Part shown: positions 5,585 through 63,855 of the stretch, piece by piece
Position numbering within the stretch: the first letter of the stretch is position 1
How the letters are laid out: each line of letters opens with the position of its first letter
Sequence record: PV204681
DNA length: 64,000 nt
From: Escherichia phage vB_EcoM_JQD51
Strand: one strand, 5' to 3'
Position numbers and translations under genes: made by a program
The notes under the pieces: generated by a model
Told to the model about the DNA's origin: nothing
Database searches by the model: none
Seen by the model: the letters and a program-made list of their open reading frames with translations, nothing else

Positions 5585-5994
5585 TACTTTTTCTTATGTT
5601 GGATATTCCAAGGCGGGTTGAACTTTTTGATAAAAAGCGGTTCTTCAAGGTCCATTGTTGCGATGGTCATTGAACCAAGTTCGTTGGTGACTGAAAGGTC
5701 AAAACATTGGCGGGCCCAGAATTCAACCTTTTTGCCTTGCATTAAGGCATCCAAAATCATAAGTGATTTTCTTGAATCTGAAGTCTGGTCTTTTCGATTT
5801 ATGGCTGTTCGATAATAGTTAATGCGTTTCTTTAAATTCTTGGTTTTACCAATATACACAAGTTCGTCATCTATAGCAATAGCGTATATGACATTTTTCT
5901 TATTAGGGACATCAACTGTTTTAATTGTTGCATCTTCTAATAGCTCCAATTCTGTATATTTAATAAAGGAATATTCGGCGGCAATATCTTTCAT
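5584..5994 (-). CDS. denA: endonuclease II (GIY-YIG)
   Basis: 136 aa; GIY-YIG motif (VIYAIAI...LVYIGKTKNLKKRINYY); between rnlA and nrdB as in T4. Confidence 0.8.
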   Translation of the reverse strand: MKDIAAEYSFIKYTELELLEDATIKTVDVPNKKNVIYAIAIDDELVYIGKTKNLKKRINYYRTAINRKDQTSDSRKSLMILDALMQGKKVEFWARQCFDLSVTNELGSMTIATMDLEEPLFIKKFNPPWNIQHKKK

Positions 5995-6002
5995 AATAAA
6001 GT

Positions 6003-6016
6003 GGGACCGAAGTCCC
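6003..6016 (-). other. UUCG-tetraloop stem-loop between nrdB and denA
   Basis: Minus-strand GGGAC-UUCG-GUCCC; no T-run. Confidence 0.4.
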
Positions 6017-6020
6017 GTCC

Positions 6021-7160
6021 TTAGAAATATTTTTTGTATGAATTGATTACATTTTGGTCTACATCATTATCAATTTGTGCGACAAGATAAGAACTGATTT
6101 CAACTTCCTGAGGAGCTGCTTGAACTAAATCAGAGTTCAGATATTCACGAATCCAAGGATACGGATGCTTGGTCGGAGCATCAGTGATTGGGCATGGCAA
6201 ACCACACTGTTTCATACGAGACACAGTCAAGTAATCAACAAAAGCACACATACTCTGCGTATTGATACCTGGGCATGTACCGTCTTTAAAGAGGTGTGCA
6301 GCCCATTCCTTCTCTTGACGGTTAACTTCCATAAAAATGTCAACTGCTTCTTGTTCACATTCTTTAGCAATTTGAACCCACTCATCGCCGTCAATACCAG
6401 ATTGAAGTTGACGAATAATGTACTGAGTACCCTTGAGGTGGAGTTGTTCGTCACGAGCAATGAACTTCATAATCTTTGCATTACCTTCCATAATTTCCAT
6501 ATTTTTATGGAAGTTGAAAGTACATGCAAATGATACGTAAAAACGAATAGCTTCCAGAGCGTTGATTACGTGCAGACAGAGGTAAAGAGAACGCATTAGT
6601 TCGTATTTAGCCTGTTTTACGCCTTCGCTAAACTCGTGATATTCTTCTAAAGCATTCTGGTAAAGGCGAGTCTTGACTAGAACATCATCGTAATATTTAC
6701 CTATTGATTCAGCTCGTTTCATGATTGCTTCGTCTAATACAATTTCATCAAATACCTTAGATGGATCCGTATAAAGATTTCGCATAATATGAGTATACGA
6801 ACGAGAGTGAATAGTTTCACTGAATGTCCATGTTGCAACCCACGTATCTAATGAAGGGTCGGAAATCAGTGCCATAAGTACCGCAGATGGGGCCCTGCCT
6901 TGGATAGAATCTAATAATGATTGATACTTAAGATTGTTTGTAAAGATGTCCTGTTGGAACTGAGGAAGCTTATTGAACTGCGCAGAGTCCAACATCAAGT
7001 TTACCTCTTCTGGGCGCCAAAAAAACGATAATTGCTTTTCGGTCAAATCTTCAAAAACTTTATGGCGTTGAATATCATAACGCGCAATACCAAGACCAGA
7101 ACCAAAGAACATCGGTTCATTCAAAACATCGACTTGTCGTGTGTTAAAAACTGTACTCAT
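6021..7160 (-). CDS. nrdB: ribonucleotide reductase beta subunit (class Ia), intronless
   Basis: 379 aa contiguous ORF; ferritin-like R2 sequence. Confidence 0.95.
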   Translation of the reverse strand: MSTVFNTRQVDVLNEPMFFGSGLGIARYDIQRHKVFEDLTEKQLSFFWRPEEVNLMLDSAQFNKLPQFQQDIFTNNLKYQSLLDSIQGRAPSAVLMALISDPSLDTWVATWTFSETIHSRSYTHIMRNLYTDPSKVFDEIVLDEAIMKRAESIGKYYDDVLVKTRLYQNALEEYHEFSEGVKQAKYELMRSLYLCLHVINALEAIRFYVSFACTFNFHKNMEIMEGNAKIMKFIARDEQLHLKGTQYIIRQLQSGIDGDEWVQIAKECEQEAVDIFMEVNRQEKEWAAHLFKDGTCPGINTQSMCAFVDYLTVSRMKQCGLPCPITDAPTKHPYPWIREYLNSDLVQAAPQEVEISSYLVAQIDNDVDQNVINSYKKYF

Positions 7161-7213
7161 TATATTTTCTCACTTAGTTTAACTCATCCATGAGTAAATT
7201 ATAATCAAAAGTC

Positions 7214-9469
7214 TTAAAGCTTACAAGCAGAACAATCTTCAGCTTTAGGTGTTTCTAATTCATAGTCATCTGTACCTGACCCATCACGAGTGTTATGATA
7301 GTAGAGGTTTTTTCCACCAAAGTACCAGAAGTAAAGCAGATCGTCAAGCATTACCGACATTGGCACTTTACCTTTCTCAAATACCGCAGGGTCATAGTAA
7401 GTATTAGCAGAAGCAGATTGGCACACCCATTTCAACATGATAGCAACTTGGGTCAAATAAGGTTTATTACCTTTCTTAGCAAGTTTCCACGCGTAGTCAT
7501 AAAGACCCACGTTATGTTCGATATTAGGAACAACCTGACGGAAGTTGCCTTCTTTAGATTCTTTAATACTTACTGGACCACGTGGGGGCTCAATCCCATT
7601 TGTAGAGTTCGATACTTGACTGCTTGACTCACAAGGCATGAGTGCAGACAACGTTGAGTTACGAATTCCATGTTCTTTGAGTTCAGCTCGAAGTTCTTCC
7701 CAGTCACAAACGTAGTTTGGAGCTGCGATTTGGTCAATCTTTTTATTGTACCAGTCGATAGGTAATTCGCCTCGAGACCATTTAGTGTCTGAATAATACT
7801 CGCAAGGTCCTTTTTCTTCGGCCAACTTGATTGATGCTCGGATAAGCCCATATTGTAATCTCTCAAACAGTTCATGAGTTAAATCGTTTGCGTCTTCATA
7901 AGAAGCAAAGTTGCTTGCTAACCAAGCTGCATAGTTCGTAACACCAACACCCAGATTACGACGCTTTTTAGCTTTTAAAGCTTCTGGAACCGGATAATCT
8001 TGATAGTCTAACAGGTTATCAAGTGCACGTACTTGTACTTCAGCAAGTTCATTAATTTTATCTTGGTCTTGCCAATCAAATTTATCTAATACAAAAGCAG
8101 ATAATGTGCATAAACCAATTTCAGCATCGGGACCATTCACATCATTAGTTGGAATAGCGATTTCACAACATAAGTTACTCTGACGAATTGGAGCTTTTTC
8201 ACGAATAAATGGTGTGAAGTTGTTAGTGTTATCAACGAACTGAGGATAAATTCGAGCAGTACCAGAACGTTCAGTCATGAACAATTCAAAGAGTTCTAGT
8301 GCTTTGATTCTTTTCTTTCTGATTGTCGGGTCTTTTTCAGCTTTCTCATAAAGCTCACGGAATTTATCTTGATCTTCAAAGAATGAGTAGTATAGTTCGC
8401 CTGACATTTCGTGAGGGCTAAATAAAGTAATATAATCATTTTTACCAAGGCGTTCCATCATAAGGTCATTAATCTGAATTCCGTAGTCCATATGTCGAAT
8501 ACGGTTTTCATCCACGCCTTTGTTATTTTTCAGAACTAATAGGTTCTCTACTTCTAAGTGCCACATCGGATAATACGCTGTAGCAGCACCACCACGAATA
8601 CCACCTTGAGAACAAGATTTTACTGCAGTTTGGAAATGTTTCCAGAACGGAATAACACCCGTATGTCGAACTTCGCCCATACCGATCTTAGAACCTTCTG
8701 CACGAAGCATACCAACGTTGATACCGATACCAGCTCGTTTAGAAATATATTCAATAATTGATGCTGAAGTTTTGTTAATAGATTTTAACGAATCACCTGC
8801 TTCAATAACTACACAACTAGAGAACTGGCGAGTTGGAGTACGAGCACCCGCCATAATTGGGGTTGGCAATGAAACTTGATGAGTAGAAACGGCATCATAA
8901 AAACGAATAATATGTTTCAAACGGTCATGAGTTTCGTCTTGGTGTAAGGCCATACCAATAGCCATGATAGCAAACTGTGGAGTTTCATAAATCTTCCCAG
9001 TTGTTTTATCTTTAACTAGATATTTTTCTTTAAGCTGCATAGCACCGGCATAAGTCAGGTCAAAGTCTCGTTCGTGTTTAATCTGTGAATCGAGATAAAT
9101 GATTTCTTCTGCTGAATATTGAGACAACAGCTCAGGGTCATATTTGCCTTCATTAACACAGTAAGAAATATGGTCGATAAAAGCAGGCGGTTCAAACTGC
9201 CCGTATACATCTTTACGAAGTGCAAACATTAGTCCTTTAGCGGCGACATACTGATAATCAGGTTCTTCGACAGAAATCGAGTTAGCTGCAACTTTAATAC
9301 AAATCTTCTGAATATCTTTGGTGCTCATCCCGTCGACAAGATGGAGTTTAATTTCTTCATATAATTCATATGGGTCAATTTGTGTTCCTTCACATTGCCA
9401 AGTTAAGACTTGAATAATTTTCTGTGCATCAAAATTTTGGGATACCCCACTGCTCTTAGTTACTTGCAT
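7214..9469 (-). CDS. nrdA: ribonucleotide reductase alpha subunit (class Ia)
   Basis: 751 aa; C-terminal CSACKL redox tail; GAGGA SD. Confidence 0.95.
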   Translation of the reverse strand: MQVTKSSGVSQNFDAQKIIQVLTWQCEGTQIDPYELYEEIKLHLVDGMSTKDIQKICIKVAANSISVEEPDYQYVAAKGLMFALRKDVYGQFEPPAFIDHISYCVNEGKYDPELLSQYSAEEIIYLDSQIKHERDFDLTYAGAMQLKEKYLVKDKTTGKIYETPQFAIMAIGMALHQDETHDRLKHIIRFYDAVSTHQVSLPTPIMAGARTPTRQFSSCVVIEAGDSLKSINKTSASIIEYISKRAGIGINVGMLRAEGSKIGMGEVRHTGVIPFWKHFQTAVKSCSQGGIRGGAATAYYPMWHLEVENLLVLKNNKGVDENRIRHMDYGIQINDLMMERLGKNDYITLFSPHEMSGELYYSFFEDQDKFRELYEKAEKDPTIRKKRIKALELFELFMTERSGTARIYPQFVDNTNNFTPFIREKAPIRQSNLCCEIAIPTNDVNGPDAEIGLCTLSAFVLDKFDWQDQDKINELAEVQVRALDNLLDYQDYPVPEALKAKKRRNLGVGVTNYAAWLASNFASYEDANDLTHELFERLQYGLIRASIKLAEEKGPCEYYSDTKWSRGELPIDWYNKKIDQIAAPNYVCDWEELRAELKEHGIRNSTLSALMPCESSSQVSNSTNGIEPPRGPVSIKESKEGNFRQVVPNIEHNVGLYDYAWKLAKKGNKPYLTQVAIMLKWVCQSASANTYYDPAVFEKGKVPMSVMLDDLLYFWYFGGKNLYYHNTRDGSGTDDYELETPKAEDCSACKL

Positions 9470-11898: not shown

Positions 11899-12141
11899 TC
11901 AAACAGACTTTTTCACAATTTTCCAATCAGCTTTAAACGATTCAATGTCAGAGTGGTAAATCCAGAATCCTGCACTTTCACCATCTTCATAGAGTGGACA
12001 TCCATCGCATTCATCTTCCCAACCCATATCGCGTAAAAGATGTTCAGCTTTTTCAACAAGTTCAGCGTCTTTACCGACGATGTTGAAGTACCATTTACCT
12101 CTAACTTCAGAATCTTTGATGCTCTGGCGTTGCAATCTCAT
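11899..12141 (-). CDS. hypothetical protein (80 aa), frd.2 position
   Basis: Track ORF start is GTG; trimmed to ATG (MRLQRQ...) with AAGGAG SD. Confidence 0.45.
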   Translation of the reverse strand: MRLQRQSIKDSEVRGKWYFNIVGKDAELVEKAEHLLRDMGWEDECDGCPLYEDGESAGFWIYHSDIESFKADWKIVKKSV

Positions 12142-12202
12142 TTTATTCTCCTTCACTTTTATTTGATAGGGCTACTATAACATAGCCCTATCTTGTTATA
12201 AA

Positions 12203-12595
12203 CTACTTTTTAAAAGTTTTTTGCAAAAGTTTGATGATTTCGTCGACGTTGGTTTCGTCTACGATACAATGGATTTTTGTTACACCTAAAGTTATACCTT
12301 CGTTAGTAGGTTGAGGCTTTACTAAATCTACCTCAATAAAGTATTTGAACTCGTCAGGATAGATCTCAAAATAAGTTTCAATTCCACCACCGGCAGAACA
12401 TACAGTACCATCTTCCATAGTTACACTTACTACGTTTGACGTATCGCTATCATAATCAGGTTCCATTCCGTTTACAACAAAACTAGGCCCGTGGAGTTCA
12501 ATCAATTTTAACATCTTAGCGTTATTGTGTGGTGCTTCTTGAACAAAGTCGTCTTTAAATAAAGGGTTAATGATATAAGATTTTCCGATTTCCAT
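12203..12595 (-). CDS. hypothetical protein (130 aa), frd.3 position
   Basis: ORF track; GAGGAAA SD; early promoter upstream. Confidence 0.5.
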   Translation of the reverse strand: MEIGKSYIINPLFKDDFVQEAPHNNAKMLKLIELHGPSFVVNGMEPDYDSDTSNVVSVTMEDGTVCSAGGGIETYFEIYPDEFKYFIEVDLVKPQPTNEGITLGVTKIHCIVDETNVDEIIKLLQKTFKK

Positions 12596-12624
12596 TTTGA
12601 TTTCCTCATGTTGTTGATAGAACT

Positions 12625-12653
12625 ATAATATCACATCTAGGGAAGAAGTAAAC
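12625..12653 (-). promoter_or_regulatory. early promoter upstream of frd.3-position ORF
   Basis: Plus strand ataata -N17- gtaaac. Confidence 0.45.
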
Positions 12654-12674
12654 AACTTTTTTTGGCAATTTACA

Positions 12675-12703
12675 GATACTCAAAAGGGAGACCGAAGTCT
12701 CCC
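12675..12703 (-). terminator. rho-independent terminator after gene 32
   Basis: Minus-strand GGGAGAC-UUCG-GUCUCCC then TTTTGAG. Confidence 0.6.
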
Positions 12704-12709
12704 AATTTA

Positions 12710-13609
12710 TTATAGACCAGCTAACAGGTCATCGAGGTCGCCATCGTCAGAAGACGAGGAACTCATGAAGTCATCTTCAGTTTTTGCAGAACTAAAGGCT
12801 TCCATGTCTTTATCAAAATCGTCGAGGTCAGAAGCAACTTTATCTGCAACAGAAGCTGCGGCAGCTGCTGCACCACCAAGAGCGGCAGTACCAAGAACTT
12901 GAGTAAATTTAGTATTCAATTCTTCAAACGATTTGAACTTATCTTTAGAAGTCATTTCAGAAAGGTCAACCATTTGTTCGAACAATTCTTTCTGGAAAGA
13001 TTCATCATCAATGTTTGGAATCGCAGATTGATTCAGGAATTTAGATTCGTCGTAGTTACTGAAACCAGAAACCTGTTTAACTTTCAGCACAAAGTTAGCA
13101 CCTTCCCATGGGCAAGTTACATCAACAGGAGTTTCACCCATTTCAGTATCGACTGCAATCATTGCATTGATTTTGTCCCAAATCTTTTTACCGAAACGAT
13201 ATTTGAATACTTTACCTTCATTATCTGGAGCTTGTGGGTCTTTAACAACCAGGATATTAGCCCAATAAGAAGTTTTACGTTTCAGTTGAGAATATTCTGT
13301 TTTGTTTGTATTGTACAGGTCATTTTTACTAATGTACTGACATACAGGACAAGAGTCGTAATCGCCGTGTGTAGATGAACAGGTTTCAATATACCATTTA
13401 CCATTTTTCTTGAACCCGTGGTTAACAAGAATTGCAAACGGAAGTGCGTCATCTGTTTTTGCCGGCAGGAAACGAATTACCGCTTGACCATTACCGGATG
13501 CATCGAGTTTCAGCTTCCATTCACCTTTATCTTCTGAAGAGAAACCTTTGTTACCATTCAGTTTAGCCATCTGAGCTGCAAGGTCTGCGGTACTTTTACG
13601 TTTAAACAT
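12710..13609 (-). CDS. 32: single-stranded DNA-binding protein gp32
   Basis: 299 aa; N-terminus [23 protein letters not shown]; Zn site C-x3-H-x5-C-x2-C ([16 protein letters not shown]); acidic C-terminal tail. Confidence 0.95.
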
Positions 13610-36409: not shown

Positions 36410-37510
36410 TTACGCTGTGAAGATTTTATCCCACATCGCAACAACTGCATCTCGGTTATACTTCTTCCATACTGCTTCAGCACGTTTAACTCGAGCTTCG
36501 TATGTGTCAGTGAATTCTAATACAGCTTTTGTGTAAAGCGCAACTACTTCTTTCTTAGGAGTAGAGGAATCAATTTCTACACGCACAGTATCTGGGTCGT
36601 ATTCGAATGTCGCATGAGGATAATCCTTAAAAACTAACTGGATTACAGGGACACCTTTAGAGATGGCTTCAATAGAACTATTCTCTACAGTACCTGTGTC
36701 AGGACACGTATTAATAAGCGCTTTAGCTGTTTTAAGACGTTCCATGATTTCACTGTGTGGAGCATCAATAATAACAGGATATTTAGCTGGTGGTGCCCAT
36801 TTACTAGGACAGTATCCTACACCATTTTCGCCTAGTGCTTTAATCGCTTCAAGAGCAACATCAGTACGACGCATTTTAGTGTCATAACGTTGTGCACTAA
36901 TAATCAGATCAGTCGCCGGAAGAACTTCATGTTTCTCATTCAAACAAATAACCGGATAATCTTCGGCTTCAAACAACGGATTTGCTCGCCAATAATCATA
37001 ATCAATTTTGTCAGTCAGACCTGAAGTCATATAACAATATTTGCGTTCAAATTCACGGAAGGCTTTAGTAGGAGCATAACTCTTACCACCATTCTTATGA
37101 ATTTGAATAGTCTGGTCCCAAATTTGAACAATGCCACGAGATACTGGTTCAAATGGTGTTGCCATAAAATTCTTATGAACTTTAGAGAGACCTGCGTCTT
37201 TAATTGCCTGAACGGTTAGTTTAGTCGGTTCCATAGTAACAACAAAATCGTATTCATGGATGCCGGCTAGTTCAACAATCTTACGAGCCATAGTATAACT
37301 CATACCTAGACTGAATTTAGTCAGATGACCAACAGGATGATGATTAACTTTCCAATCACCAAATGTGTCATTATCAAAGCCGATATAATCAATATCAGCA
37401 CCGATGGACACAAGATATTTCAACACATTTAAATGTACTGCTTCAAGGCCACCTTGTACACGGTCAGGATTAAATGGGACTGCACGAGATGGGATAAACA
37501 TAACTTTCAT
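36410..37510 (-). CDS. GT-B fold glycosyltransferase (candidate DNA sugar transferase)
   Basis: 366 aa; N-terminal MKVMFIPSRAVPF...GGLEAVHLNVLKYL and C-terminal TGTVENSSIEAISKGVPVIQ resembling the GT4 E-x7-E donor-binding region; occupies the T4 gene 60/mobA slot. Confidence 0.6.
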   Translation of the reverse strand: MKVMFIPSRAVPFNPDRVQGGLEAVHLNVLKYLVSIGADIDYIGFDNDTFGDWKVNHHPVGHLTKFSLGMSYTMARKIVELAGIHEYDFVVTMEPTKLTVQAIKDAGLSKVHKNFMATPFEPVSRGIVQIWDQTIQIHKNGGKSYAPTKAFREFERKYCYMTSGLTDKIDYDYWRANPLFEAEDYPVICLNEKHEVLPATDLIISAQRYDTKMRRTDVALEAIKALGENGVGYCPSKWAPPAKYPVIIDAPHSEIMERLKTAKALINTCPDTGTVENSSIEAISKGVPVIQLVFKDYPHATFEYDPDTVRVEIDSSTPKKEVVALYTKAVLEFTDTYEARVKRAEAVWKKYNRDAVVAMWDKIFTA

Positions 37511-57307: not shown

Positions 57308-57856
57308 TTAACGAGCCCATTTGATAATTTCTGTAATCAAATAATTACGTTCGCTTGCATTAAATCCTATAACTTTGTTAGCACCGTCATGATTAAGTAA
57401 TTGATACGTTTGGATTTTGTTATGAATTGCAAACTCTTCAAAATATGAAATGACTGTATTAAAACCGAATGAAGACAAAGTAATAAGATCGTCTTCAAAA
57501 CTTTCAGTCATTTCGTTACGTGTTAAAATAATTGTGAACACATCATGGTTTTGGCAAAGACGAACATAATCCTGTTCATAAACGTCAAGAACCGAGTCCG
57601 CATCTTGTCGAATACGTCCATAAACCCAGTTACTAATATATCCACGGTCTAACAGATAAATCTTAGTAGGGTCTAAATAATTCAACATCGTTTCGAAACA
57701 GCCAACTTCATTTCGAGACTTAACATCGAAACGTCCATCAACTGTTCGTTTAGGGAAATCAATCTTTACATATCTTTCACTAATTTCCATTATGTCATTA
57801 ATGAAAGTTGTTTTACCAGCATTATCCGGGCCATCTACTAAAATAATTTTAGCCAT
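57308..57856 (-). CDS. P-loop kinase, thymidylate-kinase-like
   Basis: 182 aa; Walker A GPDNAGKTT; DR(G/Y) motif LLDRGYISNWVYG as in TMPK/dNMP kinases; coupled to upstream gene; sits in the T4 beta-gt slot. Confidence 0.6.
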   Translation of the reverse strand: MAKIILVDGPDNAGKTTFINDIMEISERYVKIDFPKRTVDGRFDVKSRNEVGCFETMLNYLDPTKIYLLDRGYISNWVYGRIRQDADSVLDVYEQDYVRLCQNHDVFTIILTRNEMTESFEDDLITLSSFGFNTVISYFEEFAIHNKIQTYQLLNHDGANKVIGFNASERNYLITEIIKWAR

Positions 57857-57857
57857 T

Positions 57858-58757
57858 TTATTCCTCGATTACGACATCTTCATATTTAGGTATATTATAC
57901 GGCGAAGAAATTAAAGCATTAAAGTAGATGAACTCACCAAGACCTGGATGGAATACTTCTTCAGGATTTTCGAAATATTGAATCTTCGGACGTCCTTTAA
58001 GAATTTGATAGTACTCAGTTTTAGTTGGTTTAAAAATTCGAATCAGCGCTTCTTCAGGATACTTATTTCTGTCGAAGCTATTATTTGGATCGGTTATATA
58101 AAGCGGTTGGCCTAATTGAATTGCACATTCAACCACTTGTTCAAAACGATAGCACGGGTCACTAATTCGAAATGGATGAAAAATACCATCTAGATGAATA
58201 GGAGCCAAATCACCTACAAGACGCTGCATGATGGAAGGACGTATAACTTTCTGGGTTACGATAATCTTATTACCATCGGCACCAGCGTTAACCAGCACTT
58301 CCTTTTGACGTTTATTCAACACAGTAGTTTGAAGTGAACGATTAACCGACAACATATCGGTTTTTAAGAATTCGTCAATATAAAAACGTGGTTTATTAGG
58401 GTCTGCAGTGATATTGAAATTGAATTCCACATCAAAAGCGCCGTCATATCCAGTGATATCTGTGATTAGAAAATCACAATCATAATAATCAATTAATGAA
58501 TCAACCACAAATTCATTTTCAGACCAGAAATATTTACGAGTGTTATATGCGTTATCTTTATACCATAATGGAACAAACTTAAATTCTGGGAAAAGACGTT
58601 CACATTCTTTAATATCAGATGCATTACGTGGATATGTAATCACATCACCCGGATTAGCACGGTGCAAATGAAGTTGGAAGTTGCCATCCTTAAGGATAGC
58701 ATACTGTCCAGTTTCATAAGACCGCATACTCAAGATAGGTACGCGGAAAATAGCCAT
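57858..58757 (-). CDS. hypothetical protein (299 aa), candidate DNA-modification enzyme
   Basis: ORF track; TAATG coupling with gene 42; contains a DCD (DxD-like) motif; family not recognised. Confidence 0.5.
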   Translation of the reverse strand: MAIFRVPILSMRSYETGQYAILKDGNFQLHLHRANPGDVITYPRNASDIKECERLFPEFKFVPLWYKDNAYNTRKYFWSENEFVVDSLIDYYDCDFLITDITGYDGAFDVEFNFNITADPNKPRFYIDEFLKTDMLSVNRSLQTTVLNKRQKEVLVNAGADGNKIIVTQKVIRPSIMQRLVGDLAPIHLDGIFHPFRISDPCYRFEQVVECAIQLGQPLYITDPNNSFDRNKYPEEALIRIFKPTKTEYYQILKGRPKIQYFENPEEVFHPGLGEFIYFNALISSPYNIPKYEDVVIEE

Positions 58758-59473
58758 TAGTCAAGGAATCCTTTAACATAATCAAAATCACGTTCAAACA
58801 CATGGGCACTTACCATGGTATGAGTATAATCACCAACTTCTACACCACATTCGTTAGCGATATAATGAAGTAATTTTCCTTGGAGATAAAAATCCAACTG
58901 CATAACAACAGCACAGTTCTGAGAACGCATATGACAGTGGGTATAAAGCTTACCATCACGAATATAATAAGTCACTGAGTCAGTACATGGATATTCAAGC
59001 GTTTCGTCTGAATCAAGCAAAGCCTGATCAGAACTTTCTAGAATTTGGAACACAACTCTTCGAGAGTTAGGCTTCTCTTTAAGTTCTTTTAGAAGAGCTG
59101 GTAATTGGGCCACAATGCGAGGACCATAGAAAGTGTTGAAGTTCGCCGGCAAAACATCTGATTTTGGTTTAGAAATAAATTTAGCGACATTAGGATATGC
59201 CTTAAACGCTTCTTCTGCGTTGGTACCACCAGAAATCATAAACTTCCAGAAGTCTTCGGCATATTCATAAGAGATGCGGTTAATACGTGGGTCAGTCATT
59301 TTGAATGATGACGGAGTGTCAACAACTACTGTCATAGACCCAATTTCATTACAACGTCCAATACGAGAATCAGTTACGAATTCCGGGTTTTCTAAAATTT
59401 CACGATTGACTGCTTTAAATGCGGTTTGAAAATCTGCGGCTTTGATATATTTCATTGTGTTATGTTTTCCCAT
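58757..59473 (-). CDS. 42: dCMP hydroxymethylase (thymidylate synthase family)
   Basis: 238 aa; catalytic-Cys motif YPCTDSVTYYIRD aligns with T4 gp42 FMCTNTVQYLIRD; Asp in the specificity position (QLD, cf. T4 RND) implies cytosine substrate; GAGGT SD. Confidence 0.8.
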   Translation of the reverse strand: MGKHNTMKYIKAADFQTAFKAVNREILENPEFVTDSRIGRCNEIGSMTVVVDTPSSFKMTDPRINRISYEYAEDFWKFMISGGTNAEEAFKAYPNVAKFISKPKSDVLPANFNTFYGPRIVAQLPALLKELKEKPNSRRVVFQILESSDQALLDSDETLEYPCTDSVTYYIRDGKLYTHCHMRSQNCAVVMQLDFYLQGKLLHYIANECGVEVGDYTHTMVSAHVFERDFDYVKGFLD

Positions 59474-59654
59474 GTTTACCTCAATACAATTTATTATATA
59501 CTCAATTCGTAAAGCTTATTTGAATTTCTTGACAATGTTGATATAACGTAAAGCTTCAGCATCGATACTTCCAAGAACACTATGAAGAAATGCATCAGCG
59601 TAGTATTCCAATTAAACAGGTTCTTTAATCACTTTAGCCGCTTTAGTTTCAAAC

Positions 59655-59675
59655 AGGCCCATCAGGGCCTTTTTA
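59655..59675 (+). other. hairpin plus T-run on plus strand between gene 42 and the U32 gene
   Basis: aggccc-atca-gggcct then tttt. Confidence 0.3.
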
Positions 59676-59751
59676 AGAATTTGTTCGATGCTGTTAATTT
59701 TCATAGTCAAAATCTCTTCGTTAAGTTGGTGGTTAAAAGTTTTTCTAGAAA

Positions 59752-60912
59752 TCATTCTGGGTACCTCAAAGCGTCGTCAGAGTTAGTTATATCAATAATA
59801 GATATAGAATTTTCTGATAACCCATTTTTAGATAACTGACGTTTATAATATCTTTCACAATATGTACACGTCGTCCCGCAGATTTCATTAGCACAATCGA
59901 AATCTGGATGTTTGAACCACCTTTTTTCTAAAAAGCCATCTAACAAAGAGGTTTCAATATTTACCGTATGTGAAAACTCGGTCTCATTTTCAAGAGTGAA
60001 AATGGTCTCTAAAGGCTTCCACAATTCCAACAAATTACCTTCAAACTTTTCAGAAGCATAAGCTTCAAGAACTTTCAAAATGTAGTCTGTGCTACCTGTA
60101 CGTCCTGAAACTTTGAATTGAGTGATACCAATATCATTATAAAGTTTCAAATCTTGAGGACGAACAAAACGAGTTCTCAACCAGTTAAATGGGTCTGTAT
60201 CACGAGCTTTAATACAGTGCTGCATTGGATACCCATTTAAGGATTTGGCATCATCTACTGTAACATCGGTGCTATGGAAAATATAGCAAGAGTCACGATA
60301 ACTACAATGTGTTGTATACCCTTTACCAGCATTAGAACAGAACTCATTTACAAGAACTTCAAATATTATATTGTTCTTATTACAAAACTCTGCTGCACGC
60401 TTCAGGAAAGAAACTGAACGGTTCTTATGAATTCCGCAGCAGACCTTTTTGATATTATATTGGTCATGCAAGTATTTGATTTGAGTTACAGCATCGACAT
60501 GTAGAATTGTTGAAACTTCAATCTCAATGTCTTTATTGACTTCACGAACAATTTCCATAACAACAGGGTTAGCGATAGTAATACGCCATACGCCTATTGA
60601 CCAAAGATACTGAACATAATCCTGAATAGCTTTCTTCTTCCACTCAACTAGTTCTCTTTTTGAACCAGGATTTATCGTGTTGAGTGTATAGTTAAAGCAA
60701 ATACCTAATTCGTTACAACGTTTAACGTAATCTTCTAACATCTTTTTGTCAACGTCAGGAAGCCTAAAATCAGGTCTGGCTGCTACAAAAGCCATTTCTC
60801 TGGTAGAGCCGTATACTTCGTTTATCAAGCTATTAGGATAAGTTTTATTGAGCTCTACGATTTTATCAAGAAGAGCTAAATCAAAATTCGTTCCGATTTT
60901 AAAGGTATTCAT
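59752..60912 (-). CDS. peptidase U32 family protein (prephenate-dependent hydroxylase family)
   Basis: 386 aa; blocks ANPVVMEIVRE, EIEVSTILHV, Cys-rich EVLVNEFCSNAGKGYTTHCSYRDSC and FKVSGRTGS align with remembered U32 proteins (YegQ/RlhA: DPGLIMLVRE, EIFVHGALCMAYSGRC, LKIEGRTKS). Confidence 0.6.
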   Translation of the reverse strand: MNTFKIGTNFDLALLDKIVELNKTYPNSLINEVYGSTREMAFVAARPDFRLPDVDKKMLEDYVKRCNELGICFNYTLNTINPGSKRELVEWKKKAIQDYVQYLWSIGVWRITIANPVVMEIVREVNKDIEIEVSTILHVDAVTQIKYLHDQYNIKKVCCGIHKNRSVSFLKRAAEFCNKNNIIFEVLVNEFCSNAGKGYTTHCSYRDSCYIFHSTDVTVDDAKSLNGYPMQHCIKARDTDPFNWLRTRFVRPQDLKLYNDIGITQFKVSGRTGSTDYILKVLEAYASEKFEGNLLELWKPLETIFTLENETEFSHTVNIETSLLDGFLEKRWFKHPDFDCANEICGTTCTYCERYYKRQLSKNGLSENSISIIDITNSDDALRYPE

Positions 60913-60966: not shown

Positions 60967-61368
60967 TTATAGATTCGGTTTATATGATTTAAATGTTTCG
61001 AATTCGCCTTTATTCATAAGAGCTTTGAATTCGTCAGGACGCATAGCTTTGTCGTCGATAATCCAATCATATACTGGTTTATGTGTTAGCAAATTATGGT
61101 ACTTCAATCCAATGTTTGCCAAGTTCTGAATCAGACTTGGGAGAATGTCAATTGCTATACGACCAGGACCGACTGACTTCATACCGCGAGCAGTGTAAAG
61201 CGTTATTGTATGCCCTGCATCATATAGGGCATTAATGGCAGACACCATTTCGACGTCTGGTTTGAAGTTCACGTAATCACGATTGTTATTCCATTCCGTG
61301 ATGCAATCATCGACATCAAAACAAAGATTAAGCATGTTTTTTACACGGTGCATTAGATTCGTTCCCAT
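60967..61368 (-). CDS. HAD-superfamily phosphatase (small)
   Basis: 133 aa; motif I FDVDDCIT (DxDx[T/V]), motif II LYTARG, motif III/IV K...IIDDKA; start may be the ATG at 61353 (TAATG overlap). Confidence 0.6.
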   Translation of the reverse strand: MGTNLMHRVKNMLNLCFDVDDCITEWNNNRDYVNFKPDVEMVSAINALYDAGHTITLYTARGMKSVGPGRIAIDILPSLIQNLANIGLKYHNLLTHKPVYDWIIDDKAMRPDEFKALMNKGEFETFKSYKPNL

Positions 61369-63038
61369 TGATGAGTGATATCGCCACCGATTGGACGATA
61401 AGAAACACCAGTTTCTTTATCAGTTAGTACCCATTTACCAGGATTTTTTGTAATCAGAGTAGCCGTTACAGGTTCTGCTACATCATAACTAATAGAGCCG
61501 TCTTGAAGTACACGGCCCATATTACGTAATTGCTTAGTCAGAAGTTCCATACCTTTATAATATGCGGCTACCGCTTTAAGTGGATTATTCTTGAAATAAC
61601 CACCTAATGCAATCCAGATAATTGCTACAGCCAAATGATGATACTCATTAAACGAACTCATCTTTCCATATTTGTAAACTAATGGATTGATGTTAATAGT
61701 CACATTACAAGTTGTTTCATCAATAGTAAACTGTCCCCAGGTCGGATTAGCATTGAATTCATCATAACCTGAAACAGCATAAAGCACTTTAGCTTCATCA
61801 TACAATTTTGGCCCGTAAATCTTGGTTTCACCAAAATATCCACGAGGGTCGATAAACTTGACTTCACCATTATCAGTAATCATAGTATTACTGAAGTTTG
61901 GGTCACCATGAATAACAGAGTACTGTCCCTGAGAACGGTTATGATAACGAATAAGGTGTTCTAAAGCTTGTTTCAGCATTGGCTTCAGACGCCCAATCTT
62001 AGTGTAGTTCACATGTGTGATTTTACCAAATGAATCAATCAATGGTTGAATACTTTCACAACGATCAATAACTTTAGTATAGAATTCTTTAGTGAAATCA
62101 CGACGAACAGTTTCAGGACTTACAAAATAAGTGTCTGTGCTGAATTTCAGTGCATCTAAAATTGCATCAACAATTTGTGGACGAGCAAGACTTGATTTGG
62201 ATTTAATATATTCAAATGCCGGCTTACCTTTAATGCGTTCCATTTCAAAGTTATTTTCATTAACAGAAACTAGCTGAGGAACTGAATCTGATTTCACTTT
62301 AAGATACCATGAAATCTCATCTTTCTGAAGAGCTCGGCCCTGTTCGGTTAATGCGAATTTAGTTACAGTTTCTTCACCAATTTCAACTGCATTAAAACTA
62401 CGATTAAGTTCACGAACTTCATGAGCTTTTTCAAGTTTAGGCATATCACCTAAATCAATTAGATTCATAAGCTCTGATTTATTGAATGCGCTGCCGTAAA
62501 GGAATTCTACGAAATCACGTCCTTTGCAGTATTCATGAATTTCCTCATCAGTAGAACCCATATAGAATTCCCAGTCTTTGAACTGATAAATTCCTACAAC
62601 ATTACCACCTGTTGAACCTACGTTAGTGATATTTTCACCGTCGAAATTATATCGACATTCGTCGCCCTTAACATAGATTGCGTTAACATTCCAAGACCAT
62701 GAACCAAAATCAGGAATAATATCACACCAGTTAACAATTACATTATGGCCGTCTAAATCTTTGTGCAATTTAGCAAGAGCATAAGCAGAACCATATGCTT
62801 CATCAACTGTACGAATAGTCACATTGAACCCTTCTTGCTCACAATAAGCTCGAACGGTTTCAGCAAATTTTGAATGAACTACTACAATAATTTCATCTGC
62901 GCCAAGGTCAGAATAAATTGTATACAAATTGCTCAGAATAGTGTCTTGTTTATAGTTAACAAGCACCTTAGGAATATGATGTGTTATTGGATACAAACGA
63001 GTTGCCAGTCCAGCACCGAGAATAACAGCTTTTTTCAT
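61353..63038 (-). CDS. bifunctional sugar-1-phosphate nucleotidyltransferase / APH-like anomeric sugar kinase
   Basis: 561 aa; N-terminal KKAVILGAGLATRLYPITHHIPKVLV (RmlA/GalU-type G-x-G-T-R-L-x-P-x-T); C-terminal HGDPNFSN...KFIDPRGYFG (HxDxxxxN catalytic loop and D of Mg site as in ChoK/APH/AmgK); GAGGACC SD. Confidence 0.8.
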   Translation of the reverse strand: MKKAVILGAGLATRLYPITHHIPKVLVNYKQDTILSNLYTIYSDLGADEIIVVVHSKFAETVRAYCEQEGFNVTIRTVDEAYGSAYALAKLHKDLDGHNVIVNWCDIIPDFGSWSWNVNAIYVKGDECRYNFDGENITNVGSTGGNVVGIYQFKDWEFYMGSTDEEIHEYCKGRDFVEFLYGSAFNKSELMNLIDLGDMPKLEKAHEVRELNRSFNAVEIGEETVTKFALTEQGRALQKDEISWYLKVKSDSVPQLVSVNENNFEMERIKGKPAFEYIKSKSSLARPQIVDAILDALKFSTDTYFVSPETVRRDFTKEFYTKVIDRCESIQPLIDSFGKITHVNYTKIGRLKPMLKQALEHLIRYHNRSQGQYSVIHGDPNFSNTMITDNGEVKFIDPRGYFGETKIYGPKLYDEAKVLYAVSGYDEFNANPTWGQFTIDETTCNVTININPLVYKYGKMSSFNEYHHLAVAIIWIALGGYFKNNPLKAVAAYYKGMELLTKQLRNMGRVLQDGSISYDVAEPVTATLITKNPGKWVLTDKETGVSYRPIGGDITHQWERI

Positions 63039-63079: not shown

Positions 63080-63223
63080 CTAGTTAAAGCATTCATACTT
63101 TGCTTGTAGTCCAATCATAATCCATCCAATTACAAGTGTTGGAATCATTACTGGAGCCGTTAAGCTCCAGTAGATAGTCATGACAAGCATCAATAGTAAA
63201 AGTCCTATTGTTATTGCTTTCAT
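63080..63223 (-). CDS. small hydrophobic peptide (47 aa)
   Basis: Hand-read: MKAITIGLLLLMLVMTIYWSLTAPVMIPTLVIGWIMIGLQAKYECFN; ATGA overlap with the isomerase stop. Confidence 0.3.
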   Translation of the reverse strand: MKAITIGLLLLMLVMTIYWSLTAPVMIPTLVIGWIMIGLQAKYECFN

Positions 63224-63855
63224 TGTTCGCCTCGTAACATGGCACCTAGTGCGCCGCCAGGGTGGAACTTAAGGAAGTCATTAGAGGTAAATCCACGCTC
63301 AGACGAAAGGTTGATAGCAAACGTATCGATAAGCGCTAACAACAATGTAGTGGACATAGTCGGAGCCAGAGAATTCTCATCAACCTCTACTGCGATGCCT
63401 GTACAGAAAGAGTAATCAAAAAGGGCTTCATTTTCTTGTGGAATGTCTGGGTTACAATGCAACAGAATCTGTTTGACGTTCGGACGAATCATTTTAAGAT
63501 GCTTAGCCACGCCTATCATTTCTTCAGTTTTACCAGAACGACTAATATGAATCAACACATCATTAGGCGCAATGAATCCTGCATCACCGTGAGAATAATG
63601 CCCAGTGTTCAAGTACATACTCGGGATACCGAGTGAAGCAAATGTCTCAGAAGCTTTAGTTGCAATATTAGCATTCTTACCAACACCTGTAATAATTACT
63701 CGGCTTTCATAATTACTAAGTCCCGGACGTCGAAGAGTTTCTAGAATAGCATTATAACGAGCAGGGTTTTGACTAATTACTTTGGCCATATCGGCCAAAG
63801 AAGAAGATTGTTTTATGATTGCGTTAATAGCGATAGTAATAGGAGTAGTTTTCAT
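63220..63855 (-). CDS. SIS-domain sugar-phosphate isomerase, KdsD/KpsF-type arabinose-5-phosphate isomerase (no CBS domains)
   Basis: 211 aa; TGVGKNANIATKASETFASLGIPSMYLNTGHYSHGDAGFIAPNDVLIHISRSGKTEE aligns with the KdsD SIS core (GxGKSGxIGxKxAATFASTG...HGDLG...SxSGE). Confidence 0.8.
   Translation of the reverse strand: MKTTPITIAINAIIKQSSSLADMAKVISQNPARYNAILETLRRPGLSNYESRVIITGVGKNANIATKASETFASLGIPSMYLNTGHYSHGDAGFIAPNDVLIHISRSGKTEEMIGVAKHLKMIRPNVKQILLHCNPDIPQENEALFDYSFCTGIAVEVDENSLAPTMSTTLLLALIDTFAINLSSERGFTSNDFLKFHPGGALGAMLRGEQ

Follow-up and report, generated by a model that had tools for sequence, protein, structure and literature searches.

A glycosyltransferase–kinase gene pair, conserved and fused across phages, suggests a possible nucleotide-level route to arabinosyl-5-hydroxycytosine DNA

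Why should a T4-like phage keep an additional nucleotide kinase next to a glycosyltransferase of its DNA-modification pathway? The question is raised by three open reading frames (ORFs) of Escherichia phage vB_EcoM_JQD51, which we analysed in a 64-kb stretch of sequence record PV204681 (the window; all positions refer to it). All three lie on the minus strand, and the coordinates initially called for them are exact: a thymidylate synthase (TS) family protein of 238 aa (58757-59473), a 299-aa protein (57858-58757), here termed GT1, and a 182-aa P-loop kinase (57308-57856), here termed KIN or simply the kinase. Each has conserved homologues. An initial annotation placed the group in the beta-gt slot, which is correct in that GT1 and the kinase stand between the gene-42 homologue and uvsX, the latter following the kinase after a 99-nt gap. 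The trio is the already described arabinosyl-5-hydroxycytosine cassette of phages RB69 and HY126, and no new kind of system. What appears to be new is that GT1 and the kinase are neighbours in distant phages and, in some, a single fused protein. The interest that remains therefore lies in the role of the kinase, which the fusion evidence sharpens, and in a lead concerning a neighbouring gene of the U32 family.

A cassette for arabinosylated 5-hydroxycytosine

The first gene product belongs to the TS superfamily (Pfam PF00303 Thymidylat_synt, E 1.2e-15) and occupies the position of gene 42, so that its designation as gene 42 holds for family and location, but not for the reaction. Its catalytic cysteine is C163, at the position of ThyA Cys146, within a YPCTDS motif that is kept in all related loci. 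In the segment R183-S184-Q185-N186, asparagine 186 stands at the position of ThyA Asp169, where T4 gp42, the dCMP hydroxymethylase, has aspartate. D194 stands at the position of ThyA Asn177, and an aspartate at this position confers cytosine specificity. Both residues are found in all GT1-adjacent TS homologues but two (those of loci L051 and L055 in the survey described below), and asparagine at the Asp169 position is diagnostic of 5-hydroxy-dCMP synthase activity (PMC13326640). The enzyme of this type that has been assayed, RB69 gp48, forms 5-hydroxy-dCMP with O2 and flavin (Lee et al., NAR 2026, PMC13326640). The window protein is 98.7% identical to gp48. With PDB 9iqc/9ir2, which belong to the same deposition series as 9iqz, an entry titled 'phage HY126 glycosyltransferase', it shares about 97% identity over its whole length of 238 residues (E 3e-160). 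From these identities we infer that it is a flavin- and O2-dependent dCMP 5-hydroxylase (5-hydroxy-dCMP synthase), hereafter the hydroxylase.

In RB69 DNA, alpha-arabinofuranose is ether-linked directly to the O5 of cytosine and is extended by a second arabinose (PMC13326640), and another Mosigvirus has the same direct O5 linkage with no methylene bridge (Durham-collection paper). An older assignment as arabinosyl-5-hydroxymethylcytosine (arabinosyl-hmC; Thomas et al. 2018) has since been revised. Because the enzyme is of the Asn169 type and the sugar is joined straight to O5, the system has no hydroxymethyl group, and the earlier suggestion of a hydroxymethyl substrate for the kinase falls away. 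Virion DNA has been described as carrying arabinosylated cytidines only (PMC13326640).

GT1 has no sequence match in Pfam, NCBIfam or PDB. It matches phrog_3891 (520 bits), a family whose function is unknown, and 137 homologues were found. Its predicted structure has a confident GT-B fold, with two Rossmann-like domains that can be superposed on known GT-B enzymes. Its structural relatives include sucrose-phosphate synthase 6kih (score 17.7), BshA (16.8), PimA (15.9), the HY126 transferase 9iqz (14.5) and the T4 alpha-glucosyltransferase (13.2). In the C-terminal domain R197, K246 and H270-P-G are invariant. A homing endonuclease, the example of an unrelated family named in the initial annotation, is ruled out by the fold. 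The predicted fold agrees with Table 1 of PMC13326640 (2026), where the RB69 counterpart gp46:47 is listed, from structure prediction, as 'arabinosyltransferase 1'. Orthology to phrog_3891 and a position right after an Asn169-type TS homologue also place GT1 in that group. GT1, the orthologue of RB69 gp47 plus gp46 and of DLP3 gp79, is thus the predicted transferase of the first (base-proximal, alpha) arabinofuranose onto 5-hydroxycytosine (5hoC). The two pieces into which this ORF is divided in the RB69 record are regarded as a sequencing error (PMC13326640), a view with which the intact ORF of the window agrees.

The earlier guess of a DNA sugar transferase thus stands as far as the fold indicates a sugar transferase, but not for DNA as its acceptor, since the authors of PMC13326640 were unable to say whether the first sugar joins the mononucleotide or DNA. 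When purified DLP3 transferases were each tried alone, DNA containing 5hoC was not arabinosylated (PMC13326640). The isoelectric point of GT1 is uninformative here, being 5.2 (family median 5.2) against an overlapping range of 5.3-8.4 for the family of GT2, the DNA-acting second arabinosyltransferase. The window GT2 (366 aa; RB69 ORF003c/gp3; 36410-37510, minus strand) is encoded 20 kb away, flanked by rIIA and the gene for a topoisomerase, and has no detectable sequence similarity to GT1. It is near-identical to PDB 9iqz/9ir0, the 'phage HY126 glycosyltransferase' (E 4e-249), which points to the window phage being a very close relative of HY126.

The third protein, orthologue of RB69 gp45, shows GPDNAGKT, a Walker A motif, at residues 9-16 together with the DR(Y/G)-type motif D70-R71-G72, as had been recognised, and both are invariant in 24 homologues. 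Its modelled fold is that of a nucleoside-monophosphate (NMP) kinase of the thymidylate-kinase type, with the P-loop, the FPxR-type motif and the DR(Y/H/F) motif in place, and its best structural relatives are free-nucleotide kinases that have the thymidylate-kinase FPxR and DRx phosphate-binding motifs. At the sequence level it falls below the family cut-off, with no match to Pfam PF02223 Thymidylate_kin and 15.6 bits against a threshold of 83.25 for TIGR00041, and we therefore file it as thymidylate-kinase-like rather than as a dTMP kinase. Profile methods (a PDB profile, and hhalign with an approximate human TMPK sequence) align only its first ~40 residues with thymidylate kinases such as vaccinia A48R (2v54) and human TMPK, with scores below the cut-off. 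These alignments end near residue 42 and do not extend to the residues that read the base.

The kinase is not homologous to T4 gp1 (PDB 1dek/1del). A separate gene-1 dNMP kinase is encoded by the close relative JK45, and that of RB69, gp159, phosphorylates 5-hydroxy-dCMP (PMC13326640). Because both relatives have a gene-1 kinase, the kinase of the trio is additional to it, as had been supposed, and is not a plain dNMP kinase standing in for an absent gene 1. The literature adds little: RB69 gp45 is called only a 'nucleotide kinase', by prediction (PMC13326640), a transposon-mutagenesis preprint on phages LC53 and Bas46 does not mention the trio genes, and no structure deposited in the PDB matches GT1 or the kinase.

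GT1 and the kinase are an evolutionarily stable pair

We searched viral contigs with a GT1 profile, which gave 59 loci (numbered L0xx), and then searched their ORFs with a profile of each gene of the cluster. In the close set, 46 loci with a GT1 of at least 33% identity, many loci are mutually close relatives and are not independent. In the remote set, comprising 12 loci, GT1 identity is 23-28%.

None of the 44 close loci that could be assessed lacks the kinase; the other two end at or within GT1. It lies directly 3' of GT1 in 33 of the 44, with an overlap of 4-26 nt or a distance of 0-1 nt. The remaining 11, which comprise JS98-like loci and two further groups, have it a few genes upstream, with the HAD phosphatase gene on one side and the U32 or TS gene on the other. 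The TS and GT1 genes overlap or are at most 10 nt apart in 41 of the 44 related loci that have both. Of the cluster genes, 14 metagenomic loci (L030-L043) have just TS, GT1 and the kinase, with arabinose-supply genes absent within 6 kb, which makes the trio the conserved core whichever sugar is used. The same trio is found in the hexose-using Rhizobium phage RL38J1 (PMC13326640, Table 1). In Acinetobacter phages the gene order is TS (hydroxylase), GT1, kinase, GT2, GT2.

The association extends to the remote set, where a P-loop ORF with a GxDRxGK(T/D) Walker A motif of the thymidylate-kinase type is adjacent to GT1, one ORF away or fused to it in 10 of the 12 loci. It lies directly upstream in L053 and in three phages with a polymerase III (Pol III) alpha-type polymerase (L049, L050 and L056), directly downstream in L057, L059, L060 and L061, and one ORF away in L055; in L058 it is fused. 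Six of these ORFs were scanned with the kinase profile or Pfam and gave weak kinase or Thymidylate_kin matches, that of L056 being over the Pfam Thymidylate_kin cut-off at 34.5 bits. Since it occurs also in the Pol III alpha-type phages, the pair is not restricted to T4-like phages.

The fusion protein of L058 is a single ORF of 572 aa (5953-7668), in which the GT1 motifs are followed by GFDRIGKD and the kinase core. A search for similar proteins recovered about 19 distinct 90%-identity clusters of metagenomic origin (P0148-P0165 and P0168, with genomic contexts at L058, L081 1418-3082 and L082 5412-7064), 519-574 aa long, with 95-100% coverage and 36-99% identity, and one of the clusters has 230 members. 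In an alignment of seven fusions, invariant residues occur in both halves. The number of clusters and these residues indicate that the GT1::kinase fusion is real and old and is not an assembly error. In the fusion contexts a sugar isomerase, a nucleotidyltransferase and U32 always follow, with a ~220-aa ORF ahead of U32 in two further contexts, and no TS homologue is found within 8 kb.

The pair is kept together with arabinose genes, with galactofuranose-type genes or with no sugar pathway at the locus, and in L049, L050, L053, L056 and L058 it is kept where the TS-type hydroxylase is absent from the sampled stretch and U32 is present. The kinase follows GT1 more closely than it follows the hydroxylase, and its fusion partner is GT1, not the hydroxylase. 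On the evidence of these comparisons, GT1 and the kinase form an evolutionarily inseparable pair.

Is the first sugar added before replication?

The pairing and the fusion give concrete predictive content to the question left undecided in PMC13326640, namely which acceptor, the nucleotide or DNA, receives the first sugar. By a narrow margin we favour addition to the free nucleotide, a reading to which we would give somewhat less than an even chance. Hydroxylation of dCMP at C5 with flavin and O2, the making of UDP-arabinofuranose (UDP-Araf) by upstream genes and the addition of further arabinose to DNA by a second transferase are known from the work of others or from near-identity. In the scheme that we propose, GT1 would transfer alpha-arabinofuranose from UDP-Araf onto the 5-OH of free 5-hydroxy-dCMP. 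The kinase would then phosphorylate the glycosylated nucleotide, arabinosyl-5-hydroxy-dCMP, to the diphosphate, a step for which a T4-type gp1 would be no substitute with so bulky a nucleotide. The host NDP kinase would form the triphosphate, the phage polymerase would insert the already glycosylated dCTP, and GT2 would lengthen the sugar chain on DNA.

Because GT1 and the kinase are a conserved pair and can be fused, two consecutive steps on the same small molecule would be the simplest reading of their association. Since gp159 handles 5-hydroxy-dCMP and yet the cassette kinase is never lost, the substrate of this additional enzyme may be a bulkier one. Addition at the nucleotide level would also explain both the inactivity of the DLP3 transferases, tested singly, on 5hoC DNA and the Acinetobacter gene order, which is that of the proposed steps. 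Base-excision glycosylases excise 5-hydroxycytosine from DNA, where it is a mutagenic lesion, and keeping naked 5hoC out of DNA would therefore be advantageous.

Several points weigh against this scheme. All phage DNA glycosyltransferases characterised so far act on DNA, to our knowledge. Within the same pathway, GT2-type enzymes act on DNA, and AfhE fuses steps that are not consecutive (PMC13326640). Expression of gp48 and gp159 suffices to bring 5hoC into E. coli DNA (PMC13326640), so that a DNA-level route is feasible, and 5hoC incorporated in this way would need a first transferase that acts on DNA, because the cytidines of the virion are all arabinosylated. The strongest point is that a well-conserved homologue of the kinase, with 54% identity, occurs in Morganella phage MP1, which lacks the pathway.

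The conventional order of events is almost as probable in our estimate, with rather less than an even chance. The kinase would then be the 5-hydroxy-dCMP kinase of the cassette, in part redundant in T4-like phages but required where no gene-1 kinase is encoded, 5-hydroxy-dCTP would be polymerised, and GT1 would add the first arabinose to 5hoC in DNA, much as the T4 alpha- and beta-glucosyltransferases act on hmC. A TS homologue with a dedicated NMP kinase is the usual pre-replicative design for base replacement, as with T4 gp42 and gp1, and a hydroxylase and a dNMP kinase alone do put 5hoC into DNA (PMC13326640). Total replacement of cytosine by arabinosylated forms is most easily explained by a DNA-acting enzyme, and a mobile cassette that brings its own kinase would account for the linkage. 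This order fits less well with the failure of the singly purified DLP3 enzymes on 5hoC DNA (PMC13326640), with the retention of the kinase in 44 of 44 T4-like loci though gp1-type kinases take 5-hydroxy-dCMP, and with the fact that the kinase tracks, and is fused to, GT1 rather than the hydroxylase. That GT1 might instead be a UDP-pentose pyrophosphorylase is suggested by its homologue TH1_063 of Shewanella phage Thanatos, which with UTP and xylose-1-phosphate gave in vitro a product whose mass and fragmentation were those expected of UDP-xylose (PMC12838424). We regard this as very improbable: GT1 has a GT-B fold, the cluster has a dedicated AfhE-like nucleotidyltransferase domain, members of the family occur without nearby sugar-activation genes (L030-L043), and TH1_063 was assayed with a non-cognate sugar and with acceptors that have no 5-OH (PMC12838424).

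As for the kinase, it might serve the general nucleotide pool (for example dTMP, dUMP or dCMP) and owe its place beside GT1 to inherited gene order. Its fold is that of ordinary thymidylate kinases, and the copy in MP1 (L072 5995-6525, corresponding to NC_031020.1 20500-21030) lies between the polymerase gene and uvsX in a 163-kb genome in which we found no Asn-type TS, GT1, GT2, arabinose genes or U32 gene; MP1 also has a gene-1 kinase, and its thymidylate synthase is of the ordinary kind (QRSAD motif). The MP1 gene could be either a relic of a lost cassette or the reflection of a role of the family that is independent of 5hoC. Inherited gene order cannot account for the repeated occurrence of the kinase beside GT1, in phage backbones that are unrelated and with the two genes in either order. 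The recurrent fusion, the distance of the sequence from canonical dTMP kinases (by the TIGR00041 and Pfam results above) and the fact that T4 and other hmC phages do without an extra kinase likewise speak against a general role, which we consider unlikely. The presence of a P-loop kinase gene within a DNA-hypermodification cluster also recalls the 5-hydroxymethyluracil DNA kinases of thymidine-hypermodifying phages, which phosphorylate the modified base within DNA. There is scarcely a chance that this applies here, given that the nearest structural relatives are free-nucleotide kinases, that the system has no hydroxymethyl group and that the bridging ether oxygen is the 5-OH itself, so that a UDP-sugar can donate its glycosyl group without a phosphate on the base as leaving group.

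If addition to the free nucleotide proves true, this would be the first phage known to us that polymerises a sugar-bearing dNTP, and it would bear on the evasion of defences that target the nucleotide pool and DNA, and on the enzymatic synthesis of glycosylated DNA.

Relation to known systems

Counterpart trios are found in RB69 (gp48, gp46:47 and gp45), DLP3 (gp80, gp79 and gp78) and RL38J1 (gp216, gp215 and gp214) (Lee et al., NAR 2026, PMC13326640). The RB69 proteins are 98-100% orthologues (98.7% for gp48, 97.8% for gp47, 100% for gp46 and 98.4% for gp45), in the same order, in the same slot between polymerase and uvsX and with the same predicted folds. We see no material difference between any of these trios and that of the window, and in PMC13326640 only the hydroxylase was assayed, the transferase and kinase roles being predicted. 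The window belongs to a Mosigvirus. At the nucleotide level the 2.3-kb stretch of the trio matches Shigella phage phi25-307 with 99.4% identity, and some 150 Mosigvirus records match it with 95-99%. The Afh system of HY126 (He et al., Nat Chem Biol 2026; PDB 9iqc, 9ir2, 9iqu, 9iqz and 9ir0) includes the deposited chains to which the window hydroxylase and GT2 are near-identical, with the E values given above.

The resemblance to T4 is looser. GT1 has no sequence similarity to the T4 beta- and alpha-glucosyltransferases, is smaller (299 aa), has a predicted UDP-arabinofuranose donor where theirs is UDP-glucose, and finds a 5-OH acceptor where theirs is 5-CH2OH. GT1 always travels with an NMP kinase, whereas the T4 glucosyltransferases do not. 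The T4 gene 1 dNMP kinase is likewise a phage NMP kinase that channels a modified dCMP into DNA synthesis. The labels of these genes in public records ('thymidylate synthase' or 'dCMP hydroxymethylase', 'hypothetical protein', 'thymidylate kinase', 'peptidase', 'phosphoheptose isomerase' and 'dCMP deaminase') are misleading and are due for correction.

A U32-family protein may provide a second hydroxylase

Upstream of the hydroxylase, in the same gene string, lies a gene for a U32-family Fe-S protein (RB69 gp50; 59752-60912, minus strand; Pfam Peptidase_U32, PF01136, E 6e-11, 42.4 bits against a cut-off of 22.4). Ten cysteines are invariant in 22 phage homologues, and the protein remains 47-51% identical in remote lineages in which GT1 is only 23-26% identical. 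In the close set, U32 is present in loci traced to Edwardsiella, Yersinia and Escherichia phages; the loci of Acinetobacter and Pseudomonas phages lack it, as does the L011-L015/L020 group. Of the 12 remote loci, with flanks of 6-8 kb, six have only the TS gene, five only U32 and one both.

Characterised members of the U32 family are required for hydroxylations: RlhA for 5-hydroxycytidine in 23S rRNA, TrhP for 5-hydroxyuridine in tRNA in a prephenate-dependent and O2-independent manner, and UbiU/V for anaerobic ubiquinone hydroxylation with prephenate as the oxygen donor (PMC5727448, PMC6599085, PMC10990095). Because U32 and TS are nearly complementary in the remote loci, and because relatives serve in C5 hydroxylation without O2, the phage protein may be an anaerobic, prephenate-type cytosine C5-hydroxylase that backs up or replaces the O2-dependent enzyme. 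The TS-type hydroxylase and U32 would then mirror the division of ubiquinone synthesis between UbiI/H/F and UbiU/V. The idea draws on flanks of 6-8 kb, and a TS gene may lie elsewhere in those genomes. PMC13326640 enters gp50 under the name 'sugar or heterocycle reductase / predicted collagenase' and nothing more, with no mention of U32 or prephenate, and our literature search found no paper that ties U32 to the 5-hydroxycytosine pathway. The full picture, in which a pre-replicative route through GT1, the kinase and the polymerase is combined with an independent, O2-independent C5-hydroxylation by U32 as back-up or replacement of the TS-type enzyme, is one that we hold tentatively, as falling short of an even chance.

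Gene junctions and transcription signals

The initial annotation had taken TAATG-type overlaps as a sign that the trio is translated as one coupled unit. The hydroxylase/GT1 junction is indeed TAATG (58755-58759, minus strand), with one base common to stop and start, but the GT1/kinase junction reads TAAAATG (57854-57860, minus strand), with a 1-nt spacer and no overlap. A GAGGA Shine-Dalgarno-like sequence lies immediately 5' of the kinase start. The annotated relative NRG-P0074 has 25 pairs of successive genes on one strand in the neighbourhood, of which 12 overlap or are at most 1 nt apart, and two tight junctions in succession are therefore unremarkable by themselves. We accordingly rejected tight junctions as a sign of special coupling. 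A promoter and terminator scan of 56.9-63.4 kb gave no signal above shuffled expectation inside the trio and no terminator there, promoter-like sites in this region being rarer than in shuffled sequence. Such an absence of signals is compatible with co-transcription and is no evidence for it. What does go beyond chance is the preservation of the arrangement across distant phages, together with the gene fusion.

Neighbouring genes and variant loci

The genes upstream of the trio are 98.5-99.7% identical to RB69 gp50, gp51, gp52/53 and gp55 at the protein level. A bifunctional sugar-1-phosphate nucleotidyltransferase and sugar kinase (RB69 gp53:52, AfhE-like; 61353-63038, minus strand) has a Pfam NTP_transferase match and weak kinase matches, and is 99.5-99.7% identical to RB69 gp53 and gp52. 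It is followed by a HAD-type phosphatase (RB69 gp51, AfhF-like; 60967-61368, minus strand; phrog_1238; 98.5% identical to gp51), and these AfhE-like and AfhF-like genes serve the supply of UDP-arabinofuranose (PMC13326640). An arabinose-5-phosphate isomerase (RB69 gp55; 63220-63855, minus strand) is 99% identical to gp55 and bears the same name in the annotation of relatives. The HAD phosphatase and AfhE-like genes overlap in the window, at the site where NRG-P0074 (L001, PQ480333.1) has a homing endonuclease gene (12110-12871) inserted between them. Two names in the NRG-P0074 record are misleading: the AfhE-like gene is called 'dCMP deaminase' there, and the HAD gene is called 'phosphoheptose isomerase'.

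A small ORF (59516-59755, minus strand) lies where the U32 gene and the hydroxylase gene adjoin; it is homologous to RB69 gp49, which has 79 aa in RB69. Comparison of the translations places a stop at codon 48 in the window, where RB69 has Gln, and the interruption reflects either a dispensable gene or a sequencing error.

Some loci of the survey depart from the common arrangement. In the three Pol III alpha-type phages the string of kinase, GT1-like and U32 genes comes right before the polymerase III alpha gene (L049 5457-10772, L050 4268-9558 and L056 5415-10619). A ~270-aa ORF 5' of the kinase in these phages was considered as a hidden TS homologue and rejected, as the TS profile misses it and Pfam gives no match; with its acidic tail and Cys-rich centre it has the look of an SSB-type protein. 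Another locus, L052 (5443-7104), encodes a 554-aa GT1-like protein that is extended at its N-terminus by about 188 residues; the extension has a faint HAD-hydrolase match and may be a different fusion partner. L051 (3615-6198) contains a TS homologue with Ser at the diagnostic position (RSQS), a GT1-like gene with no kinase found adjoining it, and a UDP-galactopyranose mutase gene, a combination that suggests a modification with galactofuranose, as in Rhizobium phage RL38J1.

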